From Myxococcota bacterium (GTDB lineage: Bacteria; Myxococcota_A; Polyangia; Nannocystales; Nannocystaceae), in the NCBI GenBank assembly GCA_039028615.1, contig JBCCHT010000017.1, forward strand, positions 32,001-96,000: a stretch of DNA of 64,000 nt, read 5' to 3'. Below the pieces are notes generated by a model. It was given only the letters and a program-made list of their open reading frames with translations. It made no database searches and was not told the DNA's origin. How positions within the stretch are numbered: the stretch's first letter is position 1; every line of letters starts with the position of its first letter. A program made the translations under genes and the position numbers. Shown piece after piece: positions 10,533 through 64,000 of the stretch.

Positions 10533-12920
10533 CTACTTGCTCTCGGGGTTGCTCAGCTCGGCCGCGACCCGCTCGTGGAAGCCGGCGGGGATCGACTCGT
10601 GCCGACGCGGATCGTCGATGGGTCGCACGAGGTCTTCGGCCGCGATGATCCACGGCGGCTCCGGTACGCGATCGAGTTCGTAGAAGCCGCCGCAGAAGCA
10701 CGCGTGCGGACACGAAGCGCACTGCTCCTTGCGGGTGCGCCGAGCCGCCAGGTACTCGCCCAGATTCACCGTCTCGTTGTTCACGAACACCATGTGCCGC
10801 GAGAGCTTGGCGAGGTCCCCCTGCAGCAGCTCGGTGTGGTCGGGCATGAAGCAGAAGGGCAGGTTGATGACCTGGAACTTCATGCGATCGCGGAACTCGT
10901 CGATCACCTCGGTGGCGATGCGAGCCGCGTCGGCGGTATCGGGTGCGACCCCACGCGTCGCACGTCCGAAGGGAGTGAGGAACTGGATGTTGAGCCACGG
11001 CAAGCCGAGCTTCAGGCTCAGCTGCGCCAGCTCCCGCAGCTTGCGGTAGTTCCCCTTGGTGAGCGTGACGTTCATGCCGAGCTCTACGCCGGGCGGCGCA
11101 TGCTTGACACAATTTTCGATGCCCCCGCAGGTCTGCTCGAAGGCCTCGGCCACGCCGACCTGCTGCGCGTGCGTGCGCTGGTCGGGGCCGTGCACGGAGA
11201 ACAGCAGCGTGGTCAGACCGCTGCGGACCAGCTCCTTGGCGTACCCGTCGTAGAAGCAGCGGCGGCCGTTGGTGGTGACGTTGATGCGCTCGTAACCCAG
11301 CGACCGGGCGGCGCGGATGAGCGGCACCAGCTCGGGGTTGAGCGTCGGCTCGCCGCCGTCGAAGTCGACCATGCGGACGCCCTTTTGGCGCCACTTGACC
11401 AGGTGCTCGCGCTGCCGCGTGGGGTGCCCCTGGATCTGCGTCCGAGTGCCCACCGCACAGAACGTGCAGTGGTTGTTGCAGACGTAGGTGACGTTCATGA
11501 TGAGCTTCTGCGGCGCGAGCGTGGCCTGCACGCGCTGCTGGAAGGTCCACATGAAGCGCTCGAGCAGCTCCGAGCTGAGCTCGCTGCCCGTCTGAGAGGG
11601 CGCCATCTGAAAGCGCGGCCCCCAGTCCTCGACGATCGGCAACGAGCGCCCCTCGGCCAGCGGCGTCCCCGGCAGCGGCGTGGCGAACTGGACGGCGGGA
11701 TAGGCCCCGTACTCGTCGAGGAGCTCGAGCGCGAACGCCAGCGTCTCGTTGACCTCGGCCGCCGTCTCCGAGGGCAAGCCGATCATGTAGTGGATCATCA
11801 GCGGCACGCCGACCTCGTGGGCGTTGCGAGCCGCGTTGCGGATGGTGTCGAGGTCGAGCCGCTTGCCCACCACCGAGTCGATCACCCGCAGCGAGCCGCT
11901 CTCGGCCGAGACGCTGACGGTGGTCACCCGGCCGCGCATGCGCGCGAGGTGGTCGCGCTCGAGGTAGTCGGCCCGCATTCCGTTGGGCACGTCGAAGGCC
12001 AGGTCGTGGGTTTCGACCGCGGCCAGGAAGGTCTCGAAGTGGCTCTTGCGAACGTTGATGAGCTCGTCGAGCACCGCCAGGCGCGTCGCCTTGCACTCTT
12101 TGGCCAGGAACTCGACGTAGCGCCCGAGGTACTCCTTCGAGTAGCGGCGCTGGGTCTTGGGCGCGCCCTCGAGGCGATCGGGGTTGGAGCTGCAGTGCAG
12201 GCAGGTGAAGGGGCACCCGCGCGAGGTCACCAGCGGCAGGGTCCGCCCGTCGATGGGGAAGGCCCACGCACCCCGGCCCAGCTTGGCGACGAAGCGCCCG
12301 TGAAACTGCTGGTAGTGCTGCAGGTCCACCGCGTCCCAGGCAGGAAAGGGCAGCGCGTCGAGATCGGCCGGGCGCTCGCCCGAGATCACGCGCCCTTCGA
12401 CATCACCGCGAACGAGACCGAGCACGGAGACCTCGGCCTCGTACTTCACCCAGTGGTCGGCTTCGGGGTAGCTGGCCAGCACCTGAGCCCCGTCGCACTC
12501 CACGTAGTGCTGCCCGGACTGATAGCAGTCGGCCAGGATGATGGTGGCCTCGGGGTGGCGCGCCCGCAGCTGCTCCAGCACGGCCGCGAGCACGTCGTCA
12601 CGATGCGGCGGGCGGTGGAAGGGCGCGTAGGCGACGACGATATGCGACCACTGGGGCGCGGCCTCGCCCTCGTCGGCACGCAGGCAGGCCTCGACCACGC
12701 TTTCCACCGGGGCACCGAGGTGCGCCCGGTCGTCGTCTCGCCACGACAGGTCGGAGTCGGGCAAGCAGAAGGCGTCGACGATCCGCACCGAGCCCTCGTC
12801 TTGCAGCGCTTGCCGCAGCGAGGCCCCGACCTGAAGCGCCCCCAGGTTGGTCAGGTAGGGATAGTCGATGAAGTCCCTCGCTACCGTGAGCGGAGGGTGA
12901 ACGACGAGCACCTGGTTCAT
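10533..12920 (-). CDS. Two-domain radical SAM protein: B12-binding-type rSAM fused to HxsC-like rSAM
   Basis: N-terminal VLVVHPP..NLGALQV; TSRGCPFTCLHC; second motif CNNHCTFC with DGGEPT; C-terminal LPFC...CASCPHACFCGG. Confidence 0.85.
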   Translation of the reverse strand: MNQVLVVHPPLTVARDFIDYPYLTNLGALQVGASLRQALQDEGSVRIVDAFCLPDSDLSWRDDDRAHLGAPVESVVEACLRADEGEAAPQWSHIVVAYAPFHRPPHRDDVLAAVLEQLRARHPEATIILADCYQSGQHYVECDGAQVLASYPEADHWVKYEAEVSVLGLVRGDVEGRVISGERPADLDALPFPAWDAVDLQHYQQFHGRFVAKLGRGAWAFPIDGRTLPLVTSRGCPFTCLHCSSNPDRLEGAPKTQRRYSKEYLGRYVEFLAKECKATRLAVLDELINVRKSHFETFLAAVETHDLAFDVPNGMRADYLERDHLARMRGRVTTVSVSAESGSLRVIDSVVGKRLDLDTIRNAARNAHEVGVPLMIHYMIGLPSETAAEVNETLAFALELLDEYGAYPAVQFATPLPGTPLAEGRSLPIVEDWGPRFQMAPSQTGSELSSELLERFMWTFQQRVQATLAPQKLIMNVTYVCNNHCTFCAVGTRTQIQGHPTRQREHLVKWRQKGVRMVDFDGGEPTLNPELVPLIRAARSLGYERINVTTNGRRCFYDGYAKELVRSGLTTLLFSVHGPDQRTHAQQVGVAEAFEQTCGGIENCVKHAPPGVELGMNVTLTKGNYRKLRELAQLSLKLGLPWLNIQFLTPFGRATRGVAPDTADAARIATEVIDEFRDRMKFQVINLPFCFMPDHTELLQGDLAKLSRHMVFVNNETVNLGEYLAARRTRKEQCASCPHACFCGGFYELDRVPEPPWIIAAEDLVRPIDDPRRHESIPAGFHERVAAELSNPESK

Positions 12921-12929: not shown

Positions 12930-14783
12930 CTACTCGGCCGCGCCGGCGACGTTCACCGGCTGCATGCACCCGTAGCTGTGCGCCCGGACGTAGTTGACGT
13001 GCACACCCTGGCAAGAGGCGTCGTACATGCACGTCTTACAGCGCAGTGACTTCGTGAAGTAGTGGTCCTGGATGTACTTCTTGGCGTAGCGGAAGATCTC
13101 GAGGTGCCCCTTGGCGTCGAGCATCGAGCCGTCGAAGGTCTTCGGCATGGCCCGCGGCTCGCGACCGGCGATGCAGGCGGGGATGCCTTCGAAGGGGATC
13201 TCGGCCTCCAGCTCGGCGAAGAACGCGTTGAGATCGACGTCCGCTTTAGACGAAGCGGTGAGCTTGGCGTGGGTGGGCTGGCGAAGGATCAAGCCCTCGG
13301 GCACCTTGGCCAGAGACTTCACCCAGTCGGCGTTGGAGCGGTCGAGCATGAGCAAGACCTCGAAGTCGCCGCGCAGATCGAGGAAGCGCTGGGCTTGCTC
13401 GTGATCGCGAACGATCACCTGGGCCAGCTTCAGCTCGGAGATCGCCCTGCCGGACTCGAGCGCCTCGAAGAGCCCGCTGTTGTCGGCCAGCTCGAGAGCG
13501 AGCTCGGTCGGACCGGGGTAGTGGGCAGCTTCTTGCAGCGCCGCGTCGAGGGTGGGCGCAACGACCCACAGTCGTCGGGCGCCCGCCTCGGCCCCGAGCT
13601 CGGGCGGCGCGAGATACTTGGGCGGCGTGCCCGTGCCGTACATCGGCAGGCTCAGGCGCAGGCGCTCGGCCGTCTTGCCCTCCGAGGCACCGGCCGCTTC
13701 CGCGGTGGTCTGATCGGAGTCGAGCATGAGCGCTTCGCGGGTCTCGCTGCGCTGACGACTGGCCGGGTCGCCGCCGTACACGGGCGGGAGCTTGGCTTCC
13801 CAGTCGGTGTCGACGCGGTAGACCTCGAAGTCTCGCTCGGCCAGCCGCTCGCGTCGCTCGTCGAGGCGATCGCAGAGCGGCTCGAGGTAGCAGTGGCTGC
13901 ACCGATGCGGCGCGCGGCAGTCCAGCGGCACGCCCTTCTCGAGCAGGTAGCCGTACTCTTCTTTGCGCCCGCGGACCTCGTCGTTGAGCTTGTACGGGTC
14001 CTGGATCAGGTGCTCGTAGCCCTCGAGGTGCTGAGGCGGGAAGCGGTTGAGCCAGATGTGGACATCCGGGCGCTCGGAGTAGGCGAAGGCCTCGAGCAAG
14101 TACGGACGCATCTGCTCGAGGTCGTAAAAGAGCGTCTCCTTGCCTTCCGTGTAGGCCCGGCCGAAGGGAATCACGTGCAGGAGGTCGTACTCGAGCACCC
14201 CCATGTCCGTGAACTTCTTCAGCATCGTGGGCAGCTGCTTGACGTTGCCCCGATTGACGCAGATGTCGATGTTGATGATGGGGCGGCCATCGGCCAGCGC
14301 GAGCTGGAGACCCTTGATCTCCTGCTCGAAGGCCCCCTTGGTGCCCACCAAGGCGTCGTGGATCTTGGCGTTGGGCCCGTGGATCGAGAACGTGATCTCA
14401 CCGAGGCCCGCGTCGAGAGCCGCGCGGAGGAACTCGGGGTAAGCAAACAGCCGCCCGTTGGTCACCGTCTGGATCCGCTCGTAGCCCGCGAGCGAGCCGA
14501 GGCGAACGAACTCCACGAAGTTGGGGTGGATGGTGGGCTCACCCCCGGAGAGGATCAGCCGCTCGGCGCCCTTGCGACGGCCGTCGAGGATCTGCGCCTT
14601 GATCTCTTGGTTGTTCCGGTTGGTGCCGTTGTGCGTGTGCGAGTCGAGGCAAAAGATGCAGTGATCGTTGCAATCGAAGGTCAGCCGCACCCAGTTGCGT
14701 TTTTGGTGAGCCGCCGCCTCGTGGGCCACGATCTTTTCGGTCCGCTCCTGAGCGGTCTCGGCACCAGCGTTTAGCCCGTCCAC
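12930..14783 (-). CDS. HxsC-like radical SAM protein with large internal insertion
   Basis: CNDHCIFC, SGGEPT, VTNG; Cys motifs CSHCYLEPLC (middle) and IPAC...CKTCMYDASCQG (end). Confidence 0.85.
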   Translation of the reverse strand: MDGLNAGAETAQERTEKIVAHEAAAHQKRNWVRLTFDCNDHCIFCLDSHTHNGTNRNNQEIKAQILDGRRKGAERLILSGGEPTIHPNFVEFVRLGSLAGYERIQTVTNGRLFAYPEFLRAALDAGLGEITFSIHGPNAKIHDALVGTKGAFEQEIKGLQLALADGRPIINIDICVNRGNVKQLPTMLKKFTDMGVLEYDLLHVIPFGRAYTEGKETLFYDLEQMRPYLLEAFAYSERPDVHIWLNRFPPQHLEGYEHLIQDPYKLNDEVRGRKEEYGYLLEKGVPLDCRAPHRCSHCYLEPLCDRLDERRERLAERDFEVYRVDTDWEAKLPPVYGGDPASRQRSETREALMLDSDQTTAEAAGASEGKTAERLRLSLPMYGTGTPPKYLAPPELGAEAGARRLWVVAPTLDAALQEAAHYPGPTELALELADNSGLFEALESGRAISELKLAQVIVRDHEQAQRFLDLRGDFEVLLMLDRSNADWVKSLAKVPEGLILRQPTHAKLTASSKADVDLNAFFAELEAEIPFEGIPACIAGREPRAMPKTFDGSMLDAKGHLEIFRYAKKYIQDHYFTKSLRCKTCMYDASCQGVHVNYVRAHSYGCMQPVNVAGAAE

Positions 14784-14872: not shown

Positions 14873-16066
14873 TCAGTTCCCGCCGGATGAGTCGCGGCCT
14901 CGCTCCAGGTTCATCCCGCGACTCTCGATACGCTGCCCTTCGCGCCGACGCTTCGACTCGTAGAGCCGCTGACCCCGGTCGGTCAGGCGCCCCACCGCCA
15001 CGACGTTCCCATCGGGCCGGGGTGGGACGGCGATGGACGGGTGCGATTCGGCCTGAGGGAGCGCCCCCGCGTTGTGCTGCGCAAACTCACGCCGCCATTG
15101 CTCCATGCTCTGGAAGCGGTTGCTGGGGTCGCTGCCGTCGAAGAGCACCGATCGGACGATGGCGTCGCGGTCGACGAAGATCGGATAGAGCTCGGCCGGA
15201 TCGTAGCCATCGCCGCGGTCGAAGAGGCCGCCGCAGATCGATCGCACCGAGCAGCGCTCGCAGCTCTTGGCGTAGCGATGGCCCCAGGCCGTCTGGCGGA
15301 CCGTCTGCTTGTCGTCGAGGAAGTGCACGATGCGCTCCTCGCATTTGACGATCTTGCGGGTTTCCGTGCTGGCCCAGGCGAAATCCGTCATGTAGCACAG
15401 CGGCACCTTCTCGACTCGGAAGGTACGCCCGCTCTTGTGCAGCATTCGCATGGCGCGGTGCAGCGACAGCTCGAAGTCGGCCAGCCGCGGCGTGAACATG
15501 TCTTGGTTGACCTCGGCCCGGCCCATCGAGGGATCGAGGTTGTTCCACACGAAGTGGCGGATCCCCGGGTGGTGCTCGATCCAGTGGGCGATGCCCTCGT
15601 GCAGGTGGCCGGCGTTGAGCTTGTTGATGACGCAGTTGATGTTGACTTCGACGCCGTTTTCCAGCGCGTTGCCGACTGCGGCATAGGCGGAGTCGAGCGT
15701 GCCCTCGGTGCCCCGCAGCACCGCCTCGACCTCGGGGCGGGTCGAGTAGACGGACACGTGCACCAGCTTCAGGCCCGCGTTCGCCATGTCGCGGGCGAAC
15801 TTCGGATCGGAGAGCCGCGATCCGTTGGTGATCATCCGAACGTGCAGCCCCTGATTGGACGCATACTCGGCGATCTTGGGCAGCTCGGGATGTAGCGTCG
15901 GCTCGCCGCCCGTCAGGATGACCCCGAAGTAGCCCCGCTCGACGAAGTCGTCGACCAGCACCCGCATGGAGTCGAAGTCATGCGTGTACGGGGACGTCGG
16001 GTTCGAGCAGAAACCACACAGGTGGTTACAGTGCCGAACCACCTGGATGTAGCCGATGTTGGCCAT
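14873..16066 (-). CDS. HxsC-like radical SAM protein
   Basis: CNHLCGFC, TGGEPT, ITNG; VPLC...CERCSVRSICGG...ELYP. Confidence 0.87.
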   Translation of the reverse strand: MANIGYIQVVRHCNHLCGFCSNPTSPYTHDFDSMRVLVDDFVERGYFGVILTGGEPTLHPELPKIAEYASNQGLHVRMITNGSRLSDPKFARDMANAGLKLVHVSVYSTRPEVEAVLRGTEGTLDSAYAAVGNALENGVEVNINCVINKLNAGHLHEGIAHWIEHHPGIRHFVWNNLDPSMGRAEVNQDMFTPRLADFELSLHRAMRMLHKSGRTFRVEKVPLCYMTDFAWASTETRKIVKCEERIVHFLDDKQTVRQTAWGHRYAKSCERCSVRSICGGLFDRGDGYDPAELYPIFVDRDAIVRSVLFDGSDPSNRFQSMEQWRREFAQHNAGALPQAESHPSIAVPPRPDGNVVAVGRLTDRGQRLYESKRRREGQRIESRGMNLERGRDSSGGN

Positions 16067-16141: not shown

Positions 16142-17935
16142 CTAGATCCACTCCGCGATGATCGTGTACGGAGCGCACACGTCGGGCAGACCCGGGACGG
16201 GAAGGACCTCGACCCAGAAGCTGGGCGGCAGCGGGTGCGGTGCCGTGTAGTTGGCGTCGCCGCAGTTGCCGAAGTTGCCGTCGCCTTGGCCGTCGGTGTC
16301 GTCGCACGAATCGGACCACTCCCAGAGGGTGTTGAACCCAGGCCCGGGCAGGGTGGTGTCGTTCGTGTTGTCGGTCTGCGCCGCGCCGACCGGGCCGTCG
16401 TTGAACGGCACGGTGTAGTTCAGCGGATCTTCGCAGCCGCTCGGGATGATGTCCTCGAAGACGCGGAAGCGGACGTTGGTGTTGCCGATGTCGGCCGGGT
16501 TGCCCGGGTTCGCCGGATCGTCGATGTAGATCCGCAGCGTACCGCCGAGCTTGGAGCCGCTGCGGTCGACCGCATCGCTGGCGTCGAAGACCACCTCGAC
16601 GTAGTCGCGGGCGCCCGAGACACCGACCAAGCCGGTGGTGCTGTCCGAGCTGCCGAAGGCGATGGAACCGACGGCCGGGATCCGCTCCGCGCTGGCGCAG
16701 TCGTTGTTGCCCGGGTCGTCGTCGCAGTCGGGCTGACACGTGGAGGAGCAGCCGTCGTTGTCGTCGAGGTCTCCGTCGTCGCAGCCCTCGCCCGCGCTCA
16801 CGTTCTGGATGCCGTCACCACACTCGACGAGGGTGCAGTTGGAGTTACACGTGGGCGACTCGCCCGCGTCGTCACACTCCTCGCCGGCCGACACGTTGAC
16901 GATGCCGTCGCCGCAGGAGGTGAGCGTACAGTCGGCGTTGCAGGTGGCCGAGACGCCACCGTCGTCGCACTGCTCGCCCGCCAGCGTGTTGAGGACACCG
17001 TCGCCACAGACCGGGTCGGAGCAGTCGGCGTCACACGTCGCCGTCTGCATCGCGAAGTCGTCGCAGTCCTCGCCCGCGAGGCCGTTGGTGATGCCGTCGC
17101 CACACTCGGGAACGGTGCAGTCGGGATCGCAAGTCGCCGACTCGCCCGCGTCGTCGCAGTCCTCGCCCGCGGTGGCGTTGTGGACTCCGTCGCCACACTC
17201 GGCCGGAGTGCAGTCGATGTCGCAAGTCGAGGACTCGCCGTCATCGTCACAAATCTCGCCGACGGCACTGTTGACGTAGCCGTCGCCGCATTGGACGAAG
17301 GTACAGTCCGCATCACAGACGTCGGTGCGCATGCCGTCGTCGCACTGCTCGCCCGAGGTGATGTTGAGGACACTGTCGCCGCAGACGACGAAGGTACAGT
17401 CGATGTCGCAGTTGGCCGACTCGCCGCCTTCGTCACACTCCTCGGCCGCCGTCGGGTTGGTCAGGCCGTCGCCACACGCCGCGAGCGTACAGTCGTAGTC
17501 ACACGTCGCCGACTCGCCACCGTCGTCGCACTCCTCGCCTGCCGCCGTGTTCGTGACGCCGTCACCACAAAGCACGCTCGTACAGTCGGCGTTGCAGTTC
17601 GCCGTCTCGCCACCGTCGTCGCAGTCCTCACCCGGGTCGACGTTGCCGTCACCACAAAGAGGACCGCCTTCGCTCGAGCTGTCGGACGTGTCGTCGGCAC
17701 CGGTGTCGTCGGGATCGACGGAGGTCGTGCTGTCGCCGCTGGTTCCACCCATCGACATCGCACTCGTCTGCTCTTCCGTCGTGGCGACTTCACCACCCGT
17801 CGTGGTCTCTTCCATCGTGCCGGCAGTGGTTCCTCCTCCACCGCCGGCCGAGGTGTCGACTCCGTCGTCGCCGCACGCGAATATTCCTAGAGAGCCATAA
17901 ACTAAAAACGGCAAGACCCGATTGCGACGCGGCAT
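16142..17935 (-). CDS. Cys-rich repeat (DUF4215-like) lipoprotein
   Basis: MPRRNRVL...GIFAC lipoprotein signal, Thr/Gly linker, 10 CGDG..N..AGE.CDD repeats, unique C-terminal domain. Confidence 0.85.
   Translation of the reverse strand: MPRRNRVLPFLVYGSLGIFACGDDGVDTSAGGGGGTTAGTMEETTTGGEVATTEEQTSAMSMGGTSGDSTTSVDPDDTGADDTSDSSSEGGPLCGDGNVDPGEDCDDGGETANCNADCTSVLCGDGVTNTAAGEECDDGGESATCDYDCTLAACGDGLTNPTAAEECDEGGESANCDIDCTFVVCGDSVLNITSGEQCDDGMRTDVCDADCTFVQCGDGYVNSAVGEICDDDGESSTCDIDCTPAECGDGVHNATAGEDCDDAGESATCDPDCTVPECGDGITNGLAGEDCDDFAMQTATCDADCSDPVCGDGVLNTLAGEQCDDGGVSATCNADCTLTSCGDGIVNVSAGEECDDAGESPTCNSNCTLVECGDGIQNVSAGEGCDDGDLDDNDGCSSTCQPDCDDDPGNNDCASAERIPAVGSIAFGSSDSTTGLVGVSGARDYVEVVFDASDAVDRSGSKLGGTLRIYIDDPANPGNPADIGNTNVRFRVFEDIIPSGCEDPLNYTVPFNDGPVGAAQTDNTNDTTLPGPGFNTLWEWSDSCDDTDGQGDGNFGNCGDANYTAPHPLPPSFWVEVLPVPGLPDVCAPYTIIAEWI
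16726..17656 (-). repeat. Ten ~93-nt coding tandem repeats (Cys-rich repeat)
   Basis: Counted in the translation; same repeat type as 6990-7826. Confidence 0.8.
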
Positions 17936-18286
17936 GCCGCCAGTGTACCGCCCTCCGGCGGCACAGCTAAGCCGAAACTTCGGCAATGATCGGTGAAAGG
18001 TGGCGGCACCCCGTCGATGGCGCGATCGAGATCGTCCGAAATCGTCTGGCATGCCGCCCGCGGGATCTGCGTGGGGTCACGGGTCGAGTGGCGGACGAGC
18101 GGGCCCTCACCCCCAATCGGCCGGCTGCGATCGGCTGAACCCGCAGGAAATCCGTGACGGATGTGCGGAACTAGGCTCGCGCAACCCACGATGGTCGGGT
18201 CATCCCCTCGCGTCGGTCCTCGGGACGGCGAAGCGGCAGTCCGACGTGCGGGGTCGCGGGCGTCGTTCGAAAAACACCGCTCGGCG

Positions 18287-18316
18287 TTGACCGTCTCCCG
18301 CCCGAATCGCTAGCGT
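18287..18316 (+). promoter_or_regulatory. Candidate sigma70-type promoter (TTGACC-N18-TAGCGT), probably leaderless
   Basis: -35 at 18287-18292, -10 at 18311-18316, TTG start 7 nt downstream. Confidence 0.45.
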
Positions 18317-18323
18317 TCCGCCG

Positions 18324-19169
18324 TTGGCATCCCCGGGCTCGAAGCACGCGCGCTGGCCTGATGGCCTTCTATTCGCCAAGCGCCACGAGCGCTGGCGCGA
18401 GCAGACCTCCGAGGATCCGCGTCTGGCCGCGCTTCGTGCGCGAGACGGCTCCGACGATGACATCGTTTCGACGGTGGCGGCCGCTCGTTCGGCGGGGTTC
18501 GAGCAGATCGTGCTGCAGCACGACGATCCGTCGGACGAGGCTCCACGCGATTGGGCGGCGCTCCGCGACGCTGGCCTCACCGCGGTGAGCGTGCGAGTCG
18601 AGGGCGGCACCGCGGACCTGCACGACTTCATCGCGGCTCAAACTCCCGACCGCCCCGCGCCCGACTTGGTCACCCTCGAGGCGACGTGTCGGCAGATTCG
18701 ACAGCACGGCCTGGCGATCCACTTCCGCACTCGGGTCGCTCGATCGAACTTTCGATCCCTCGAAGGTGTGCTTCGCCGGGCGATGGCCTGGGACGCGAAG
18801 ACGTGGACGTTGGAGTATCTGCCACTGCGCAGCACCGAGCTCCCGCCCGAGGGCGTAGGCCACGCGCACCCTCGATTGGCCTTGAGCCTGCCCTGGGTTT
18901 TGCGTTCGGGTGCGCGAGCTGCGGCCCGGCGCGTCGTGTTTGCACTGCGCGGCGCTCCGCTGTGTTTGCTGGGTCCCTTGGCTCCCCACGCCGTGCTCGA
19001 ACAACCCGCCGGCTTCGGCCCGACCTGCGAATCCTGCCCGGCTCGCAACGGCTGTGTCGGTGCCGATCCGACGTACCTCGAGCGCTTCGGACTCGACGAA
19101 CTGCGACCGCGAGCAACCCCCACCACGCCGAGCGTCGGCTGGTGGTCGGTCGCTCCGATCCTTTATTAA
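18324..19169 (+). CDS. Degenerate HxsC-like radical SAM-fold protein lacking CX3CX2C
   Basis: Barrel-like segments (AGLTAVSVRVEGGTADLHD, VARSNFRSL) and APLC...CESCPARNGCVG...YLERFGLDELRP, but no Cys triad. Confidence 0.7.
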   Translation: MASPGSKHARWPDGLLFAKRHERWREQTSEDPRLAALRARDGSDDDIVSTVAAARSAGFEQIVLQHDDPSDEAPRDWAALRDAGLTAVSVRVEGGTADLHDFIAAQTPDRPAPDLVTLEATCRQIRQHGLAIHFRTRVARSNFRSLEGVLRRAMAWDAKTWTLEYLPLRSTELPPEGVGHAHPRLALSLPWVLRSGARAAARRVVFALRGAPLCLLGPLAPHAVLEQPAGFGPTCESCPARNGCVGADPTYLERFGLDELRPRATPTTPSVGWWSVAPILY

Positions 19170-19178
19170 AATTCGTCC

Positions 19179-20660: not shown

Positions 20661-20671
20661 TGAATCCGGAC

Positions 20672-21199
20672 CTACTGCTGCTCGGCCTGCTCGGGGGAGG
20701 GTTCGTCCGACGGTTCTACGGCGGCGTCTTCGGGGACCTCGGTGGCGCTGTCGGGGGAGGGCTTGTCGTGGCGTTGCTCCCACGACATCGCGATGCCGAG
20801 CGGATCTTCGAGTGCCTCCTCGCTGATCCCGTCGTCGCCCGCGAGCTGCTCGGTGCTGCCGAGCGCTTGCGCCATGACGAACTCCATGGTGCCGATGTTC
20901 TGCGCCTCGACCTGCTGCACGAGCACCTCGCCCGCGACCATGTCCTCGAAGTCGTTGCCCAGCTGCTCCCAGGCGTCCTCATCAGCGACATCCCCGCGCG
21001 CGACGAGGGTGACCCGCATGGTGGATTCGCCCGCGGCTTCCACTGCCACGTAGCAACGGTCGATGAAGCGGTAGGCGGCGTGGAGAAGCGCGGGGACCGG
21101 CACTTGCCGCTCGTCGACTTCCCAGGAGATCGCCCCTTCGTGCCGGGTCGACTTCATCGCCGGCGACGGAGCTTCAGAGGTTGCTGCGGTCGTTGTCAT
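20672..21199 (-). CDS. hxsD: HxsD-like protein
   Basis: VPALLHAAYRFIDRCYV resembles the HxsD AAY.F.DR core; directly upstream of hxsB; acidic tail LEDPLGIAMSWEQR. Confidence 0.72.
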   Translation of the reverse strand: MTTTAATSEAPSPAMKSTRHEGAISWEVDERQVPVPALLHAAYRFIDRCYVAVEAAGESTMRVTLVARGDVADEDAWEQLGNDFEDMVAGEVLVQQVEAQNIGTMEFVMAQALGSTEQLAGDDGISEEALEDPLGIAMSWEQRHDKPSPDSATEVPEDAAVEPSDEPSPEQAEQQ

Positions 21200-21396
21200 A
21201 GCCCTCGCATTAGGCTTTTTACCGCAGGGTGGGGTACGGCGTCGCCCCGATGTCGGTGTTCTCGTCGGCGCGCGGCGGCCCACGTGGACACGAACGACGT
21301 CCGAGCGTGGCTGCCCTTTTCGCCGATCCGCGCATCCAACGCGATCCGACCCGGCCCTCCTGGAGGCGAAAGCGATTTCGCCATCCGATAGATCGT

Positions 21397-21426: not shown

Positions 21427-21442
21427 CGTTACAGAGTTCGCC

Positions 21443-23952: not shown

Positions 23953-23961
23953 GTCGACTCG

Positions 23962-52887: not shown

Positions 52888-52908
52888 AGGGCTCCGTCGG
52901 CGGCAGGC

Positions 52909-56165: not shown

Positions 56166-57064
56166 ACCACGGTGATGAATAGCAGCGCCCCGCTCACCGC
56201 GCTGGCGAGACGATGCTGCGAGCGCAGCGTGGCCACCTTGGCGTCATCGGATCCGCAGCGCCACAAGAGCACGGGGAACACCAGGACGTAGGGAATGGCG
56301 TGCACGGCCAGCCACAGCGAGACCCCGGCTCGCTCGGCGAGAAACCAGGACGCCACCACCACGCAAAGACCCATGAGCGCGGTCGCCAACACCACGCCCC
56401 GAGCCCCCAGCAGGCCGTAAGTGGTCTGGAGTCCGCCGTCGCGGTCTTCCTTGGCGTCGGCCGCCTCGTGCAGCAGCTGGTTTTGCAGCAGCAACGCGCT
56501 GAAGGTGCCCACCAAGGCCCACTGGGCGGGGCTCATCGTGTCGCCGACCAAGCCCAGGACCATCAGCGGCGCAAAGCAGCCCACGTTGAGCAGCGTGCAG
56601 ATGATCGGATAGCCCTTGAGCCGCGGACCCGCGGAGTACAGCGTGCCCGAGACGATGCAGGTGAGCGTGGCCCCGAGCACCAACGACGACGCCCCCGCGG
56701 CCAGGGCGAGCGCGATGCAGGGCATCAGCACCGCGAGTGCGTAGTGCAAGCGCGACGGACGACGCGCCTGCACGAAGGGGTTCTTCGATGCGCTGAGGTC
56801 GAGGTTGCGATCGGAGATGGCGTTGAGCAGGTAGCCCCAGCCCAGCACGATGGCCGCCAAGACCACGCCGCGGACCAGCGCGGGCACGCTGTCCATGAGC
56901 GGGAGCGCGCGATCGAAGCAGGCGAAGGGCAAGATCGCGAAGTGCAGCCACTGGGCGGGGCGCAGCGCCTCCATGATGCCCGCCGATGCCGACGCCGACT
57001 CGGGTGCCACGTGACCCGCGGCTGCCCCGGGAGGGTCATCGATGGCGGGGCAGTCGGCGTCCAT
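56162..57064 (-). CDS. UbiA-family prenyltransferase
   Basis: ALRPAQW, YLLNAISDRNLD..KNP, LYS..PRLK, HEAADAKEDRDGGLQT. Confidence 0.82.
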   Translation of the reverse strand: MDADCPAIDDPPGAAAGHVAPESASASAGIMEALRPAQWLHFAILPFACFDRALPLMDSVPALVRGVVLAAIVLGWGYLLNAISDRNLDLSASKNPFVQARRPSRLHYALAVLMPCIALALAAGASSLVLGATLTCIVSGTLYSAGPRLKGYPIICTLLNVGCFAPLMVLGLVGDTMSPAQWALVGTFSALLLQNQLLHEAADAKEDRDGGLQTTYGLLGARGVVLATALMGLCVVVASWFLAERAGVSLWLAVHAIPYVLVFPVLLWRCGSDDAKVATLRSQHRLASAVSGALLFITVV

Positions 57065-57087: not shown

Positions 57088-59484
57088 CTACCGCAGCCGC
57101 AGGCTCTCCACCATCCACGGATCGAGCTGTTCGAGCTCCGCAACGAGGCCCACGATCGCCTCGGGAGGTCCAACCTCGCGCTGCTTCAGCACCAATTGCG
57201 CCTCGACGGGTCCTGGGCTGGTCAGCTCGATGACCTGCGTCCGGCTGGACTCCGCGGTGTAATCGGTGGCCGAACATTCGACCGCGCTGCACTCGACCAG
57301 GTCCCACCCCCGCCGGAGGATCAGGTACCGAGTGCCCTCGTCGGCCGTACGCACGGTGAGTCGCTGCATGACGGTGGCGGGGTCGACCGCTTCGGGCCAC
57401 GGCGAGACGTCCATGTTCCGCGCCCGCTGGTGCCAAGTCGCCTCGGGATCGAGCTGCCCGGCGTCGACCACGGGCTGGCACCAGCGCTCGCCGTCGATCT
57501 GGCCGCACGCCTCGAACTCGCCGCGCTGCACCCACGGCTCGGGGCCGAGACCGAGCACCGCGACGTGGCTGGCCAGCGGCACGCGCTCCCAGCCTCCGGG
57601 GAGCTCTGGAGGCTCGTCGGGGAACATGAATGCCACGATGGGCCGTTGCCCGGCCTGACGCTCGGACTCCAGTGGGGTGTCGGGGTACAGCAGCGCGAGC
57701 CCGACGACATGGGCGAATCGAGAGGGCGCTTGCACCGAGAGCCCGACTCGATCGCGGGGAACACCGCGAGCGTGCAATGCCTTCGCCAGCAACTCCACAT
57801 CCTCGAGGCCGTAGGCCTGTTCGGGGTCCTCGGGGCCCTGGTTGTACGCCACCGCACCCGCGGCCAGCCATGCCGCGACCTGCCACCGCGGGTTCGGAAT
57901 GAGGCTCAGCAATCGAGCGCCGATGAAACCGGCGAAGCACGCGACGCCCGGCACCACCGCGGCGAAGTAGTGGCGCCGGGGGAGTTCCACGAGGATGGCC
58001 GCCGCCCCGATCGCGCTCACGACGAGCACGGTCGCGACGTAGATCAGGACCCGCTGACGAGCCACCGCCGACAGGCGCTCGAAACGGCCGCGCACCAGAC
58101 CGCCCAGGCCAACGCCCACCGGGACGCCCAGCGCGATGACCACGGGCAGAGGGCCCGCCGATTCCGTGCTGCGCCAGCTCAACACCGACTCGGGGTCGAT
58201 GATCGCGATCGTCAGGAACGCAGCATTGGCGGCCAGCAGGGCGTCGAAGGTCGAGCGGGCGCGAAGACTGGCGATGCCGGCCACCAGCGGAATGGCGAAC
58301 ACGTTGGTCGGATGAGCCTGCATCGCGAGGCCGGCCATGGCCCCGGCCGCAACCGCGAGCGACGGACCGCCGCGCTCGAGCAGGAGGGAGCACGACAAGA
58401 ACAGCGCCGCCAAGGGCAGCGTGGCCATGGCCGGGTTCCACAGCAACGGGTGGACCGCGAGCCACGGGCCGAGGAGTCCGGCCGCCAGCGCTGCCGCCCA
58501 AGCACCCCCGACCCCGTGCAGCCGTACCGCGAGCACGGCACACAGCGCGGCCGCGAGAGCGGCGCTCAGATCTCGAATCCAAGAGATCGTACCGAGGTCG
58601 GCACCCATCGAGCGCAAGGCCCCCAGCACCATCGGCCACAGACGCCCGTGCTGGATTCCCGGGATGGAGGACGAGTGGCTTCCCGGACCGACGCCCTCGA
58701 CCCAAAAGTCACGGGCGACGGCGAGATCACGCATCGAGTCATGGCGAATGGGCAGGCCGTGGCCAGACATCGCCAGGTACACCCCGGTGACCGCCATGGC
58801 CCCCGCCATGATCGCCAGCATCGTCGAACCGTGCGGCGACGGCAGCGGCACCCAACCGCGCTCCGCCCCATCGGAACGCCGAGAGCGCGCCAGCCAGGTC
58901 GCCAGCCCCGTCCCGAGCAAGAAGACCCACAACAACAGCCACGGGACGCGGGCCAGCAGATGAGCCCCGTCGTCCTCGGCCGAGCCGCGCGGTTTGGTGG
59001 ACTCGTCCCACTCCGCGACCATGTCCTCGAGCTCGAACGATCCCGCCTCGGTCCGTCTCTCCGCGGGCTGAATCAAGGCGACGATCGAGTCTTCGGGTTT
59101 GTCGGCCGCTTCGACTTCGCACGCCGTGAGCTCGGCGACGACGATCGGATCTTCGGCCAAGGCGGGGCCGAGCCCGGTCAACGCCGCCCCCAGCTCCTCG
59201 GGGAGCCGTGTGGCGCTGCTGCTGGTGACGAATTGATCGCCATCGACCTGAAGCGCCAACGCACCGGTCTCCCCCGAGAGCGTCTCGATCTCCAGGAATA
59301 TGACCGCGCCGTGGACGGTGGCCGTGATCGGCGCGAGCTCGGGCATCAACGCCGTCGCACGAGCGCGCACGACTTCGGGATCGCAAGAGCCCACGAGGTC
59401 TTCGGCGTAGGACTCGCCCGCGCCCAGTTCTCCTGCCCCGGGGTCACCCAGCAGCGCGAGACCGAGGACCCAGGCAGACAGCAC
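57088..59484 (-). CDS. Large polytopic membrane protein, GT-C-like
   Basis: HDSMRD, LWNP, AGLAMQAH, RHY; N- and C-terminal soluble domains. Confidence 0.55.
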   Translation of the reverse strand: MLSAWVLGLALLGDPGAGELGAGESYAEDLVGSCDPEVVRARATALMPELAPITATVHGAVIFLEIETLSGETGALALQVDGDQFVTSSSATRLPEELGAALTGLGPALAEDPIVVAELTACEVEAADKPEDSIVALIQPAERRTEAGSFELEDMVAEWDESTKPRGSAEDDGAHLLARVPWLLLWVFLLGTGLATWLARSRRSDGAERGWVPLPSPHGSTMLAIMAGAMAVTGVYLAMSGHGLPIRHDSMRDLAVARDFWVEGVGPGSHSSSIPGIQHGRLWPMVLGALRSMGADLGTISWIRDLSAALAAALCAVLAVRLHGVGGAWAAALAAGLLGPWLAVHPLLWNPAMATLPLAALFLSCSLLLERGGPSLAVAAGAMAGLAMQAHPTNVFAIPLVAGIASLRARSTFDALLAANAAFLTIAIIDPESVLSWRSTESAGPLPVVIALGVPVGVGLGGLVRGRFERLSAVARQRVLIYVATVLVVSAIGAAAILVELPRRHYFAAVVPGVACFAGFIGARLLSLIPNPRWQVAAWLAAGAVAYNQGPEDPEQAYGLEDVELLAKALHARGVPRDRVGLSVQAPSRFAHVVGLALLYPDTPLESERQAGQRPIVAFMFPDEPPELPGGWERVPLASHVAVLGLGPEPWVQRGEFEACGQIDGERWCQPVVDAGQLDPEATWHQRARNMDVSPWPEAVDPATVMQRLTVRTADEGTRYLILRRGWDLVECSAVECSATDYTAESSRTQVIELTSPGPVEAQLVLKQREVGPPEAIVGLVAELEQLDPWMVESLRLR

Positions 59485-59502: not shown

Positions 59503-60264
59503 TCAGACCAAGGAGCGCAATAGCTCGCTGTCGCCCACGTAGGGCTTCCAGCTCTCGTCCCGCCAGGAAGGCGCCTCGGCATGGCTCGCCGTGAAGTAGC
59601 AGGCCACGAACGAACGCAAGCCCGCGGAGCGCTTGGGGCGGGCGGCGTGCCAGGTATTTTGCTCGGCCAAGACCACCGTGCCCCGGCGACACGACAGCTC
59701 GACCTGCCCCTCCCAGTGCTCGTCGTTGGGGTCGAAGGGCGGCCGCGTCGGATCCTCGAGGCGGCGCGGGTACACCAGCAGCTCGCCGTTTTCGGGGGTC
59801 AAGTCGTCGAGGTACAGCAGCATGGTGAGCCGCTCCGACCGCGTGAACGTGGGGAACAGCCCCTTTTTGCGGTAGACCAGGTTGTCGACGCCCCCGACGT
59901 GCATGTGCCAGGGAAAGAAGGGGCGGTCGCCGTGGTTGACGATGGCCGCGGTGTACTCGAGGAACATGTCGTCTCCGAGCACGGCCCGGGCCGAGGCCAC
60001 CACCTCGGGATCGAGCAGGTGCCCCGCCAGCTCGCCGCAGTGCTTGCCGAGCTGGTGAAAGACCAGGCCCACCACCGAGACCTCCACGTCGGGCGCAGGC
60101 TCGAGCGGCGGGCGAGCGAAGGTGATCGGCGACCCGATCTCCGTGTAGCGCGTGGTGATGCGTTCGCGGATGAAATCGACCGCGTCCGGGCGGCAGGCGT
60201 CCTCGAAGACCGCGTAGCCTCGCTCGCGGATCTCGGCCGCGGCCTGCTGTGCACGCGTGGTCAT
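59503..60264 (-). CDS. PhyH-like Fe(II)/2OG dioxygenase (paralog of 45430-46218)
   Basis: RERGY, WHMHVGGVD, LYLDDLTPENGEL, TWHAA, RSFV. Confidence 0.8.
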   Translation of the reverse strand: MTTRAQQAAAEIRERGYAVFEDACRPDAVDFIRERITTRYTEIGSPITFARPPLEPAPDVEVSVVGLVFHQLGKHCGELAGHLLDPEVVASARAVLGDDMFLEYTAAIVNHGDRPFFPWHMHVGGVDNLVYRKKGLFPTFTRSERLTMLLYLDDLTPENGELLVYPRRLEDPTRPPFDPNDEHWEGQVELSCRRGTVVLAEQNTWHAARPKRSAGLRSFVACYFTASHAEAPSWRDESWKPYVGDSELLRSLV

Positions 60265-60278: not shown

Positions 60279-61634
60279 CTAGCCCGCCGTCGGCCGGGTG
60301 CCCAGCGGCTCCACCACCGCGTCACCGTAGCGAGCATGCTCCTCGGGGCGCACGCCGAAGCAGGCATCGGCGACCCGGCAATCATCGCAGGACGGGAGCT
60401 TGACGCGGAAGTGACGGGGCAGCGGACCCGGGATCGGACGCAGGCTGACGACGCGTGGATCGGCCCCGAACGCGCACAAAGCCGGGCCGCAGGGTCCATC
60501 GAGCCCGTCGAGCTCGAGGCCCACCGCCACCGCCCGCTCCACCGTCTCGCGCAACGCAGAGCGGAGCTGGTGGGGCTCGGGCAGCATGTCCTGCAGCAGC
60601 TGCTTTTCGTAGGGCTCGGTCGGGTACGAGAGCATCAGGCCGGAGATCCCACGGTGGCCGAACTCGCGGGCGATGAGGTCCGGCAGCTCGGGCAATCGCT
60701 CGAGGCCCGCGCTGGTCATCACCGCGTTGAGCTTCACCGCCACCCCGGCCGCCAGCAGCCGCTGGATGCCCGCGACCGTGCGTCCGTGGGTCCCCGGGGC
60801 GCGGGTGATCGCGTCCGAGACCTCGGGATCGGAGCTGTGCAGCGAGACGAAGGCGTCGGTGAGGCCCGCCTCCCTCAGGGTCTGCGCGTAGTCCCCTCGG
60901 CTACAGCGGATCGCGTTGGTCTCGAGGGTGATCGTCGAAAAGCCCAGCCCCCGGGCGAAGCGCAGGTGCTCGGGGAGCTTGGCGTCCAGCGAAGGCTCGC
61001 CGCCCGAGATCAGCAACGCACGCGCCCCCGCGGCGTACAGGTCCTCGATCCAGGTCCGTACTTGCTCCGCCCCGAACCCACCCCAGTCGCGCGACTGCCA
61101 GCACATGCCGCAGTCCTGGTTGCACAGGTAGCCGAGCCGCACCAAGCCCACGCGCGGCTCCACCCCCGCGACGATCTGTCGGTGGAACTCCATGCGCACG
61201 CCGACCGGGATCCGTCGCAGTCGTGCCGCGACCTCGGCGGCTTGTTTCCAGCGCGCCGCCGTCGTCGCTCGCGCCACGCGATCGGCCAAGGTCTGCATGA
61301 CCTTCATGTAGCGATCGGCTCCCGGGTTGAGCCGCACGACCTCGACCTCGACCGCAATGCTGCCGACGCCCTGGAACCGCCGCATCCGCAGATGAGCGAC
61401 CGGAGCCTCCAGACCCAACACCAAGTCGATGCTGCCCCGCGGGACCTCGACGCCCAACAGGCGCAAACCCGAGGCCGGCAAGTCCACGGGCAGCGACGGG
61501 GCCCGCACCAGGATGCCGGCAATCTCCAACGCCAGCCGGTCTCCCTCGATCTCGGCGGGTGGCGGATCGCGAAAAACGGGCTCTGACGGGCGCTGCGACG
61601 AGTCCCCGGAGGACGGGCTCGATCCTGCCGTCAC
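60279..61634 (-). CDS. HxsC-like radical SAM protein with N-terminal extension
   Basis: CNQDCGMC, SGGEPS, ETNA, SLHS; PALC...CDDCRVADACFG. The track's 1221-aa version is extended by a shadow frame. Confidence 0.85.
   Translation of the reverse strand: MTAGSSPSSGDSSQRPSEPVFRDPPPAEIEGDRLALEIAGILVRAPSLPVDLPASGLRLLGVEVPRGSIDLVLGLEAPVAHLRMRRFQGVGSIAVEVEVVRLNPGADRYMKVMQTLADRVARATTAARWKQAAEVAARLRRIPVGVRMEFHRQIVAGVEPRVGLVRLGYLCNQDCGMCWQSRDWGGFGAEQVRTWIEDLYAAGARALLISGGEPSLDAKLPEHLRFARGLGFSTITLETNAIRCSRGDYAQTLREAGLTDAFVSLHSSDPEVSDAITRAPGTHGRTVAGIQRLLAAGVAVKLNAVMTSAGLERLPELPDLIAREFGHRGISGLMLSYPTEPYEKQLLQDMLPEPHQLRSALRETVERAVAVGLELDGLDGPCGPALCAFGADPRVVSLRPIPGPLPRHFRVKLPSCDDCRVADACFGVRPEEHARYGDAVVEPLGTRPTAG

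Positions 61635-64000: not shown

Follow-up and report, generated by a model that had tools for sequence, protein, structure and literature searches.

An Enzyme-Rich HxsA4-Type Gene Cluster from a Marine Myxococcota Bacterium with an Unnamed Domain on Nine Proteins

Introduction

The HXS system, HxsD-HxsB-HxsC-HxsA (TIGR03976–TIGR03979), is an anti-phage system described from E. coli (Li et al., Nat Commun 2026, PMC13128918). It comprises four genes, and its effector is a 214-residue protein with a signal peptide, a domain for peptidoglycan binding, and five basic repeats (PMC13128918). The modification amounts to +C/−4H, the product remains on the protein, and every repeat is needed; HXS is 99.7% Pseudomonadota, and Myxococcota are unmentioned in the main text of that study (PMC13128918). 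The original prediction for the locus described here knew of no characterized product of an Hxs system, a view that the E. coli work has overtaken.

A second, HxsA4 type is catalogued in NCBIfam (NF038313, NF038315, and NF038332); a literature search, with subscription journals mostly outside its scope, found no paper on this branch. Other points of comparison are the triceptides and His-cross-linked RiPPs (HaaB, YhhB, ScaB, bicyclostreptin HghBC, and ChlH) and the cyanobactin F family (LynF/TruF/PatF and LimF). ChlH hydroxylates His on a cyclophane, and peptide-backbone cleavage is reported for some HExxH enzymes (PMC12636437). LimF geranylates His, and His-x-Ala cross-links are formed by radical SAM (rSAM) enzymes (PMC11002830).

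Results

Extent and Radical SAM Inventory

In coordinates of the window (the whole 64,000-nucleotide stretch of DNA that was analysed), the cluster spans ∼85 kb from −6485 to 78891 and contains ∼60 genes (61 in the gene-by-gene comparison). It thus continues past the right edge, as predicted, and also runs past the left edge. Within positions 10533–64000 are 15 rSAM(-like) genes, which together carry 18 domains and 16 CX3CX2C motifs, the figures originally given, in a count that takes in HxsB and the motif-less genes 18324–19169 (+) and 28414–29643 (+); the whole cluster has 19 such genes. Seventeen of the 45 proteins in the genome that match the rSAM profile fall within the cluster, which is 0.7% of the genome, and this concentration is not due to chance. 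Gene orientation is mixed. The segments 30849–34606 and 36370–38106 are insertions absent from the syntenic, same-genus genome G005. PADLOC gave only generic viperin-type rSAM matches, and a promoter and terminator scan of 17800–37000 returned 1 and 9 sites, respectively, versus 1.7 and 8.7 in shuffled sequences.

The Precursor and the Hxs Core

The core consists of the following genes:

10533–12920 (−), double rSAM: an N-terminal rSAM domain and an HxsC-like rSAM domain
12930–14783 (−), HxsC-like rSAM
14873–16066 (−), HxsC-like rSAM
18324–19169 (+), degenerate HxsC-like protein, without CX3CX2C and with the C-terminal Cys motif kept (PF04055 E 0.042, below cut-off)
19179–20660 (−), HxsB, rSAM/SPASM maturase (TIGR03978 570.5, cut-off 370)
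20672–21157 (−), HxsD-like protein 1 (TIGR03976 31.4, below the cut-off of 50)
21443–21988 (+), stand-alone protein of the shared domain, bearing a twin-arginine (Tat-type) signal, the RR being invariant in 7/7 aligned orthologues
22036–23952 (+), HxsC-like rSAM fused to a class I methyltransferase
23962–∼25197 (−, start approximate), aKG-HExxH peptide beta-hydroxylase family protein (TIGR04267 94.7, cut-off 40)
25360–25833 (+), HxsD-like protein 2 (TIGR03976 34.0, below the cut-off of 50)
25830–26048 (+), HxsD_rel, directly upstream of the precursor (NF038315 65, cut-off 41)
26139–26558 (+), HxsA4 precursor, 139 residues

The precursor comprises a 57-residue leader, one His-Ala-Ser, (His-Gly-Ser)26, and a final Trp, and the 27 predicted His-x-Ser repeats are therefore exact. 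It scores 129.4 bits against NF038313 (HxsA4; cut-off 55) and matches only HxsA4 and collagen-like models. Neither a signal peptide nor a peptidoglycan-binding domain was detected in it, and its N terminus is charged and without a hydrophobic stretch. In 22/22 aligned precursors the leader retains an invariant Leu-Pro and one further invariant Leu; across genomes the repeat unit is invariant and its copy number is 9–27, and almost every precursor seen retains the terminal Trp. With its short length and its conserved leader and core, the precursor resembles those of RiPPs.

Family profiles recovered HxsB, all three predicted HxsD-like genes (two of them below cut-off), and the HExxH protein. 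HxsB resembles 5WGG only from residue 99 onward; its N-terminal 95 residues may be RRE-like. No cluster gene reaches the HxsC cut-off (TIGR03977, 267.9; best 115.5) or the HxsC4 cut-off (NF038332, 500; best 122.8), and for HxsC4 none does so genome-wide. On these profile matches, the cluster falls within the catalogued, unstudied HxsA4 branch and outside the four-gene HXS system of E. coli, to which it is distantly related. The precursor and HxsD_rel pass their HxsA4-type models and the core is the same as in relatives; in contrast, no gene here passes HxsC4.

Like the E. coli system, the locus has an HxsB that passes its cut-off, proteins resembling HxsD and HxsC, and a His-x-Ser repeat substrate, and an extracytoplasmic destination is plausible here as well. 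In place of an effector with a signal and a wall-binding domain, however, this locus encodes a leader followed by 27 repeats with uncharged spacers that end in Trp. Moreover, it has ∼60 genes, 19 of them rSAM(-like), with a Tat-type partner and tailoring modules, its HxsC-like and HxsD-like proteins fall below the TIGR03977 and TIGR03976 cut-offs, and the D-B-C-A order is absent. Similar to the triceptides and other His-cross-linked RiPPs, the repeat places His at position i and a small residue at i+2, His-Gly-Ser fits the three-residue aromatic-x-residue motif, and an rSAM/SPASM enzyme is paired with an HExxH protein. The main differences are that HxsB belongs to another family (ChlB matches at E 3e-4 only), that 27 motifs stand in tandem, and that many more enzymes are present; none of the best five matches of any cluster rSAM is a known cyclophane-forming triceptide rSAM family.

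The genome has another precursor and another hxsB/hxsD locus, which makes the prediction of a single precursor incomplete. The gene adjoining the native hxsB (C5:244697) looks like a response regulator rather than a peptidase, and no conserved soluble peptidase was seen among the profile and Pfam matches of the core genes. In each of five congeners, the 10533 gene is present as one copy, in the native locus or in the supercluster and never in both; the same holds for the HExxH gene in four of the five. In FastTree trees, supercluster and genus-native copies do not fall together, a pattern that fits acquisition.

Add-on Modules

To the left of the core lies a sugar-tailoring module, which extends to about −6485 and encodes a UDP-GlcNAc 2-epimerase, a NeuB synthase, an NTP-transferase, a carbamoyltransferase, a deacetylase, and a shared-domain membrane protein; it is syntenic in G005 only. 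The remaining genes are as follows:

2697–6117 (+), TPR protein (paralogue of 74862–77072) and sulfotransferase (Pfam), the right end of the sugar-tailoring module, syntenic in G005
26630–27475 (−), distant relative of LynF/TruF/PatF-type peptide prenyltransferases, suggested by a family profile search
27523–30582 (+), two paralogous ∼295-residue proteins of an unnamed family (27523 and 29683) flanking a degenerate rSAM
28414–29643 (+), that degenerate rSAM, without CX3CX2C and with the shared domain
34775–36172 (+), HxsC-like rSAM with the shared domain, present in 43/51 loci fetched with the 27523 family
38338–40716 (+), fusion of the shared domain, a PhyH dioxygenase, and an amidohydrolase
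40721–42364 (+), B12-binding rSAM (methyltransferase-type) with the shared domain
42432–43580 (+), shared domain and PA0069/SPL-like rSAM
43596–45326 (−), polytopic membrane protein of no family, candidate GT-C-like
45451–46218 (+), PhyH-like oxygenase, His-x-His replacing the usual His-x-Asp
46270–48093 (+), polytopic membrane protein of no family, absent from the G005 cluster
48157–50001 (+), double HxsC-like rSAM
50123–52098 (+), paralogous pair of PTO1314-like rSAM proteins, 56% identical
52108–53745 (−), Rce1-like (CPBP) intramembrane protease with a DUF5692-like membrane protein, both absent from the G005 cluster
53928–54821 (−), Cupin_8/JmjC oxygenase (Pfam)
55275–56165 (+), LPG-synthase-TM-like membrane protein, below cut-off
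56162–56974 (−), UbiA-family prenyltransferase (PF01040 63.4 bits, cut-off 34.2)
57088–59484 (−), polytopic membrane protein of no family
59503–60264 (−), PhyH-like oxygenase with a His-x-His motif
60279–61529 (−), HxsC-like rSAM
61767–64679 (+), double HxsC-like rSAM and Gfo/Idh/MocA, running past the window edge
Right of the window: DUF483-like protein; rSAM(-like) genes 66470, 68275, and 77170; shared-domain membrane protein 72592; TPR protein 74862–77072; last gene ending at 78891

Pfam confirms the four further Fe/2OG-type oxygenases of the original prediction (three PhyH and one Cupin_8/JmjC) along with its methyltransferase, amidohydrolase, and Gfo/Idh/MocA domains. Pfam also confirms a UbiA protein; the LynF/PatF-like link of 26630 is weak. 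All four PDB sequences matched by the 26630-family profile are of the LynF/TruF/PatF type, with best E values of 0.0014 and 0.0019, and the profile aligns with SmiF and 8YE0 over 120–160 positions; 26630 has no curated-model match at E ≤ 1e-5. These matches (E about 0.002) weakly suggest that a distant LynF/TruF/PatF-type relative stands beside the precursor, in a cluster that, unlike those of the cyanobactins, has no cyanobactin protease or YcaO. PF11468 was found in 0/301 genomes of the phylum sample, in a search whose positive control gave no match either. The 27523 family has no PDB match, has no Pfam family common to more than one member, and matches the 26630 family at an HH probability of 5.5%; a prenyltransferase-like fold for the 27523/29683 pair was predicted once by a language model and serves as a lead only. 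Six of the 16 longer homologues of this family are fused to rSAM, B12-rSAM, or PhyH domains.

Membrane proteins 43596, 46270, 57088, and 72592 have 6–9 hydrophobic stretches, and no fitting Pfam or PDB match to GT-C was obtained for them. On this question, one membrane-protein homologue weakly matches DUF6541, and G144 has a PMT_2 protein with the shared domain. Two further candidates were rejected. One is the peptidoglycan-binding gene 34169, a conceivable substitute for the HxsA anchor of E. coli, which has 11 paralogues elsewhere and is absent from the G005 cluster. The Rce1-like protease 52108, considered as a leader peptidase, is likewise absent from the G005 cluster and therefore not required there.

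A Shared Domain on Enzymes, an Exported Protein, and Membrane Proteins

Nine cluster proteins, including cytosolic enzymes, the Tat-type exported protein, and membrane proteins, carry an unnamed domain of ∼95 residues. It was detected with a pooled profile under a leave-one-out design in which each held-out protein was ranked among 9,244 proteins: six of seven cluster proteins ranked 1–3, and 34775 was missed at rank 31. Iteration from single seeds gave no link between the shared-domain families, and only the pooled leave-one-out design linked them. A profile rebuilt from relatives recovers nine cluster proteins at E ≤ 4e-4 and only three others, and the best E in the reversed proteome is 0.14. 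In a predicted-structure search, the domain of the Tat protein retrieved clusters of Myxococcota SPL-like rSAM (TM 0.62) and B12-rSAM proteins (TM 0.52). A further fusion joins the domain to a family that has homology with the LynF-like protein (HH probability 90.8%).

The NCBIfam HxsA4-type models cover neither this domain nor the prenyltransferase-like or membrane modules. Comparison with HxsD was negative, and no convincing PDB match was found; the likeness to the C-terminal domain of MucB/RseB (0.88) lies under the 0.9 bar and is a lead only. Its presence on both distal enzymes and the core ties the former to the latter. In a 301-genome sample of the phylum, in which relatives are not independent, it occurs in 105/112 genomes with HxsB versus 6/189 others, and in both exceptions able to separate the domain from HxsB, it goes with HxsA4.

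Conservation and Distribution

By best match, 42/61 cluster genes are present in G005 at 50–93% identity and in nearly the same order, and two further genes are present as fused halves. More distant superclusters occur in Minicystis rosea and in uncultured lineages; with 13–17 CX3CX2C-bearing genes around hxsA4/hxsB, they are found in G112 (Minicystis rosea), G115, G144, and G127. They share only 9–14/61 genes with the cluster, vary widely in content, and hold many GT2, nucleotide-sugar, WelO5-like, Rieske, and SGNH genes. In G017, homologues of the far-right genes 68275, 66470, and 64676 adjoin hxsD-hxsB-hxsA. Distal genes stand beside hxsA/hxsB in unrelated lineages, and the synteny, the distant superclusters, and the shared domain support the predicted greatly elaborated Hxs system; the lack of co-occurrence between distal genes and hxsA/hxsB that the original prediction named as refuting it was not observed.

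HxsB is present in 44/49 genomes with the 27523 family versus 112/301 in the phylum sample, the genomes in these tallies being related and not independent. The middle module (26630–29683, 34775, 38338, 40721, and 42432) is apart from hxsA/hxsB in ∼10 of ∼20 genomes in which linkage could be judged, including G082, G018, G023, G035, and G002, and the Tat-type core protein is present in other genomes even without a nearby add-on module. The cluster is a mosaic of a core and portable modules that are often unlinked elsewhere.

Discussion

The reading that we put forward, and regard as evenly poised between right and wrong, is one extended pathway to an envelope peptide that would be cross-linked, methylated, oxidised, lipidated, and probably glycosylated. 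HxsB and about a dozen HxsC-like rSAM domains would likely cross-link the leader-(His-Gly-Ser)n-Trp peptide; by analogy with E. coli, HxsB, the HxsC-like proteins, and the HxsD proteins would modify His and Ser of the repeats, +C/−4H being what one added carbon and oxidative cross-links would give. Judging from their families, the HExxH protein may beta-hydroxylate His, the B12-rSAM and methyltransferase domains may methylate, the PhyH/JmjC proteins may oxidise, and the LynF/PatF-like protein may prenylate His, Ser, or the terminal Trp. The shared domain could recognise the cross-linked repeat scaffold and so recruit enzymes of different folds. Because the precursor has no signal peptide, the stand-alone Tat-type copy may bind the product outside the cytoplasm or carry it there, and the shared-domain membrane proteins may transfer lipid-linked sugars. 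The role is the least certain step: an envelope barrier against phage DNA entry, drawn by analogy, is a doubtful first guess, and an envelope polymer with a metal-binding or structural function has about the same likelihood.

Among the points against a single-peptide pathway, PhyH, WelO5-like, Rieske, UbiA, Gfo/Idh/MocA, amidohydrolase, and NeuB enzymes usually act on small molecules or sugars, the middle module is often unlinked, and gene content varies between superclusters. An alternative that we judge unlikely divides the work, with the peptide modified by the Hxs core and a distinct small molecule or glycolipid produced by the add-on modules; the shared domain would then serve only for docking, either between enzymes or at one common site, and clustering would reflect co-regulation or joint mobility. 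It would account for the stand-alone middle-module cassettes of several genomes, the strong variation in content, and the genes typical of glycan or lipid tailoring in the distant superclusters. However, genomes with the middle module nearly all have HxsB, the shared domain goes with HxsB/HxsA4 and has a core Tat-type copy independent of nearby add-on modules, and a putative peptide-type prenyltransferase relative adjoins the precursor.

Less probable again is that the repeats are multi-copy feedstock, each His-Gly-Ser being cross-linked, excised, and made into a small molecule (a cofactor, metal chelator, or lipid head group; cf. PQQ and mycofactocin) tailored by the add-on enzymes. An invariant unit in variable number would suit this scheme, as would the amidohydrolase, oxidoreductase, PhyH, and UbiA families, and backbone cleavage is known for some HExxH enzymes (PMC12636437). 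Against it stand the E. coli product, which remains protein-bound and requires all repeats (PMC13128918), the core without a visible conserved soluble peptidase, and the near-universal terminal Trp. That unrelated acquired genes simply happened to accumulate around an ordinary Hxs operon is very improbable and largely refuted: mixed orientation, two unrelated insertions, and supercluster copies that stand apart from genus-native ones would fit it, yet gene order is conserved in G005, such superclusters recur in distant lineages, and the shared domain and gene fusions link the parts.

If the add-on enzymes of the extended pathway do act on the peptide, few ribosomal peptide pathways known to us would be as rich in enzymes, with ∼20 uncharacterised rSAM domains working on three types of residue. 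The shared domain would then represent a new, portable module for recognition, comparable to the RRE. What is new here is this domain, the putative LynF/PatF relative beside the precursor, and the core-plus-portable-module build. The Hxs core is common in the phylum, though the sole HXS study found the system almost only in Pseudomonadota. We tentatively extend this to a broader proposal: about one-third of Myxococcota genomes may encode an undescribed ribosomal “assembly line” that would turn (His-Gly-Ser)n-Trp into a cross-linked, prenyl-anchored, glycosylated envelope polymer, a new scaffold-recognition domain active on both membrane sides letting unrelated enzymes plug in, with this cluster among its largest forms. 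Carriers in culture include Paraliomyxa miuraensis and Minicystis rosea, which makes both the product and its role (possibly an anti-phage one) testable.

Extent and composition of the supercluster

The supercluster is real and bigger than first described: it spans -6485 to 78891 (85 kb), 0.7% of a 12.27-Mb genome in which the window is C17:32001-96000, and the closest named homologues come from Paraliomyxa miuraensis and Enhygromyxa, which places the genome in the Nannocystaceae. Gene calls made with our own codon-model script, together with family scans of the predicted proteins, bore out every sequence feature listed in the original prediction, including 15 radical SAM(-like) genes with 18 domains and 16 CX3CX2C motifs, a tally that includes HxsB and the motif-less proteins 18324 (degenerate HxsC-like) and 28414 (degenerate radical SAM). 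Three more radical SAM(-like) genes, 66470, 68275, and 77170, plus one more start, lie past the right window edge. The whole cluster contains 18 HxsC-like or other radical SAM(-like) genes plus a DUF483-like partner; with the degenerate 64676/68275 pair taken as separate genes, the total is 18 by family scan and 19 at the widest reading. The radical SAM profile matches 45 proteins genome-wide, 17 of which are encoded by these cluster genes. In 12 cluster proteins, including those that lack CX3CX2C, the C-terminal region has a Cys motif that follows a single pattern.

The precursor (26139-26558, 139 residues) is composed of a 57-residue leader followed by His-Ala-Ser, 26 His-Gly-Ser repeats, and Trp, the repeats being encoded by six different 9-base units. 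The HxsD-like protein at 25360-25833 has a conserved acidic C-terminal tail containing Trp-Glu-Glu-Lys-Tyr.

A conserved core and its relation to known Hxs systems

In profile searches of 61 relatives, HxsA4 scores over cut-off in 29 and HxsB in 30. The core that recurs in loci from 14 family genomes, where it is frequently scattered over two to four places per genome, comprises hxsA4, hxsD, hxsD_rel, hxsB, orthologues of the double radical SAM 10533, the HxsC-like proteins 12930 and 14873, and the HxsC-like methyltransferase 22036, the HExxH protein, and the small protein 21443. All precursors follow the same plan with 9 to 27 repeats, and a Leu-Pro and a further Leu are kept in the leaders of 22 of 22 aligned.

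The genome also has a second Hxs set in scattered places: contig C5 carries hxsB, hxsD, and an HxsC-like gene, and C16 carries hxsD_rel together with a precursor of 11 repeats. In trees of HxsB (IQ-TREE) and of 22036, 14873, and the HExxH protein (FastTree), the supercluster copies do not group with those native to the genus. Single copies of 10533 and the HExxH gene are found in 5 of 5 and 4 of 5 congeners, respectively; in the congener G005, the HExxH gene is at the native locus and absent from the supercluster, and the window's genome shows the reverse. This tree separation, together with single-copy genes at one locus or the other, fits a cluster that was acquired or long duplicated, has replaced native genes, and would be in use. 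In another congener, G003, the HxsA4-type system is accompanied by a compact Hxs locus of a different kind (L013:3515-6783); this locus has 6 repeats, and its HxsB is the highest scorer against the HxsB model.

The original prediction knew of no characterised Hxs product, a statement now outdated. As described in a recent report, the four-gene HXS system of E. coli stops phage DNA entry, HxsA processing requires HxsB, C, and D, and one HxsA repeat becomes 8 Da heavier (+C/-4H), with the protein reaching the periplasm (PMC13128918). By family scan and gene order, the cluster lacks four features that define this E. coli system: neither HxsC nor HxsD scores over cut-off, the precursor has neither the signal peptide nor the wall-binding domain of E. 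coli HxsA, and the gene order differs. The cluster instead passes the HxsA4 and HxsD_rel models of the NCBIfam HxsA4-type system. This branch is already catalogued, and our literature searches found no paper on it; they likewise turned up nothing on the supercluster, on its shared domain, or on the possible link to peptide prenyltransferases described below. The terms "radical" and "His-Xaa-Ser" are absent from the searched main-text passages of the P. miuraensis genome paper.

Modular assembly

The cluster is one unit assembled from modules. In G005, 42 of the 61 genes are recovered by best match at 50-93% identity in nearly the same order, with a 20-repeat precursor; two further genes exist there in fused form, and the pair at the far left has been relocated inside the cluster. 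The central 21 kb is also seen in the P. miuraensis record L090.

The middle module is portable; it comprises the LynF/TruF/PatF-like 26630, the paralogues 27523 and 29683, 28414, the HxsC-like 34775, the B12-radical SAM 40721, the SPL-like 42432, and PhyH genes. Of 73 family genomes, 11 carry 27523; no hxsA or hxsB lies within the fetched flanks of the module in G082, G018, G023, G035, and G002. Among 51 loci of the 27523 family across GTDB (L129 yielded no gene calls), 43 have a homologue of 34775 and 24 a homologue of 40721. HxsB is present in 44 of the 49 source genomes searched (41 over cut-off; L090 and L128 left out, G107 unpublished) versus 112 of 301 genomes in the phylum sample. In G071, the middle module includes hxsD and a copy of hxsB broken by many single-base frameshifts (L074:7962-10216), which look more like long-read error than decay.

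Core and module are physically linked in about half of long contigs. Minicystis rosea (G112), G115, G144, and G127 have 13-17 CX3CX2C-bearing genes around hxsA4/hxsB, as motif counts in which genes cut at locus ends may be counted twice; the regions compared were picked from hxsB coordinates suggesting linkage and are not a random sample. Core and module are apart in G106, G120, G125, G138, and G141. The radical SAM(-like) 68275, 42 kb from the precursor in the window's genome and present in 4 of 73 family genomes, has a homologue adjoining hxsD-hxsB-hxsA in G017. Distant superclusters have themes in common more than genes: a family scan of 108 proteins (104 of them picked from 132 candidates) found B12-radical SAM enzymes, PhyH, WelO5-like, and Rieske oxygenases, GT2 and nucleotide-sugar enzymes, UDP-GlcNAc 2-epimerase, carbamoyl- and sulfotransferases, PMT_2, and MurJ. 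The G144 supercluster also contains a reverse-transcriptase gene (L142:13399-14421).

A shared domain on unrelated enzymes

Several unrelated enzymes carry a terminal segment of ~95 residues, first noticed by reading the proteins. In a ranking of 9,244 predicted proteins, leave-one-family-out profiles placed six of seven cluster proteins at rank 1-3, with E values from 8e-7 to 0.011, and missed 34775. A profile rebuilt from relatives only, excluding the G005 supercluster loci, although window proteins were in the seed used to collect the relatives, recovers nine proteins of the cluster with E <= 4e-4: 34775, 28414, 40721, 42432, 68275, the PhyH-amidohydrolase fusion 38338, the stand-alone 21443, and the membrane proteins 72592 and -6485. 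Its only matches outside the cluster are one radical SAM on C9 and, on C16, a pair of proteins related to 21443; the best E in the reversed proteome is 0.14. The C9 protein (C9:57309-59081, L171) is HemN-like and stands alone, bearing the domain at its C terminus; G106 has a distant homologue of it close to the Hxs core. Comparisons with Pfam, PDB, and HxsD gave no convincing match to the domain. Predicted-structure searches with the 21443 domain independently returned a cluster of 386-residue SPL-like radical SAM proteins (TM 0.62) and one of 562-residue B12-radical SAM proteins (TM 0.52), both mostly from Myxococcota.

Of the 301 phylum genomes, 111 carry the domain and 112 carry HxsB; the two occur together in 105, HxsB alone in 7, the domain alone in 6 (five weak), and neither in 183. 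No P value is attached because kin genomes are not independent. Five exceptions were checked: HxsA4 adjoins the domain gene in G292 (domain, no HxsB), G395 (HxsB, no domain) is without HxsA4, and three HxsB-only genomes carry HxsA4, so the domain is either missed or absent there.

A twin-arginine signal, which we take to be Tat-type, is present in the stand-alone protein 21443 and is conserved without change in 7 of 7 orthologues aligned. In 72592, a hydrophobic stretch at the N terminus precedes the domain, which thus probably faces the periplasm. Its occurrence on cytosolic enzymes and exported proteins alike argues that it would bind something present on both sides of the membrane, the matured scaffold being likelier than the leader.

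A possible peptide-prenyltransferase link

The 26630-family profile matched four PDB sequences, all LynF/TruF/PatF-type (SmiF, E 0.0014; 8YE0, E 0.0019; two others, ~1.1). In distant lineages, a homologue of ~340 residues (HH probability 90.8%), fused to the shared domain, stands in place of 26630. The LynF/TruF/PatF family prenylates peptide residues, and LimF attaches a geranyl group to His at C2 (PMC11002830). A language model gives a tentative lead to a prenyltransferase fold for the paralogues 27523 and 29683 (PTase_Orf2, assigned to 11% of one cluster with a score of 0.90). Of 16 longer homologues in their family, 6 are fused to radical SAM, B12-radical SAM, or PhyH domains.

Proposed pathway

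What was observed are the genes, how they are linked, and the shared domain; beyond that, the chance is about even that the add-on enzymes all act on one peptide, cross-linked by the Hxs core, to which the domain recruits them. By analogy with the E. coli mass change and with the His-x-Ala and His-x-Arg cross-links that other radical SAM enzymes form (PMC11002830), HxsB and the HxsC-like set, aided by HxsD, would cross-link His and Ser in each repeat. The HExxH protein may hydroxylate the peptide, for which PMC12636437 offers a precedent. Enzymes recruited by the shared domain would then methylate, oxidise, and prenylate, and the Tat-type protein and membrane proteins would handle and glycosylate the product beyond the cytoplasm. 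Alternatively, the add-on genes could form a separate small-molecule or glycolipid pathway, which appears unlikely; excision of the repeats into small molecules is more doubtful again, and a chance gathering of genes is very improbable. The closest precedent for a possible role would be the blocking of phage at the envelope, but the inheritance of conserved single copies throughout whole families would fit a standing envelope function better than a mobile defence island.

Neighbouring and inserted genes

A separate small RiPP-like locus lies just left of the cluster (window -12479 to -9245; L003:5522-8756), with an MNIO (DUF692, PF05114), a radical SAM/SPASM gene, and a 54-residue ORF resembling a precursor, with two Cys and a leader of the Gly-Gly type; the locus is not found in the G005 flank. 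Insertions absent from G005 occupy 30849-34606 and 36370-38106 and carry an FGE-sulfatase-like gene, a lower-GC secreted-effector-like gene, a peptidoglycan-binding protein, and a lipoprotein. The genes flanking the second, 34775 and 38338, form one 1157-residue fusion in G005. In the PhyH-like proteins at 45451-46218 and 59503-60264, and in their relatives, His-x-His replaces the usual His-x-Asp and may be a variant iron site. Cys-rich-repeat surface proteins, with over 20 paralogues in the genome, lie within the cluster at 6234-8135 and 16142-17815; two are at the same place in G005, and the G115 and G144 superclusters contain DUF4215 proteins.
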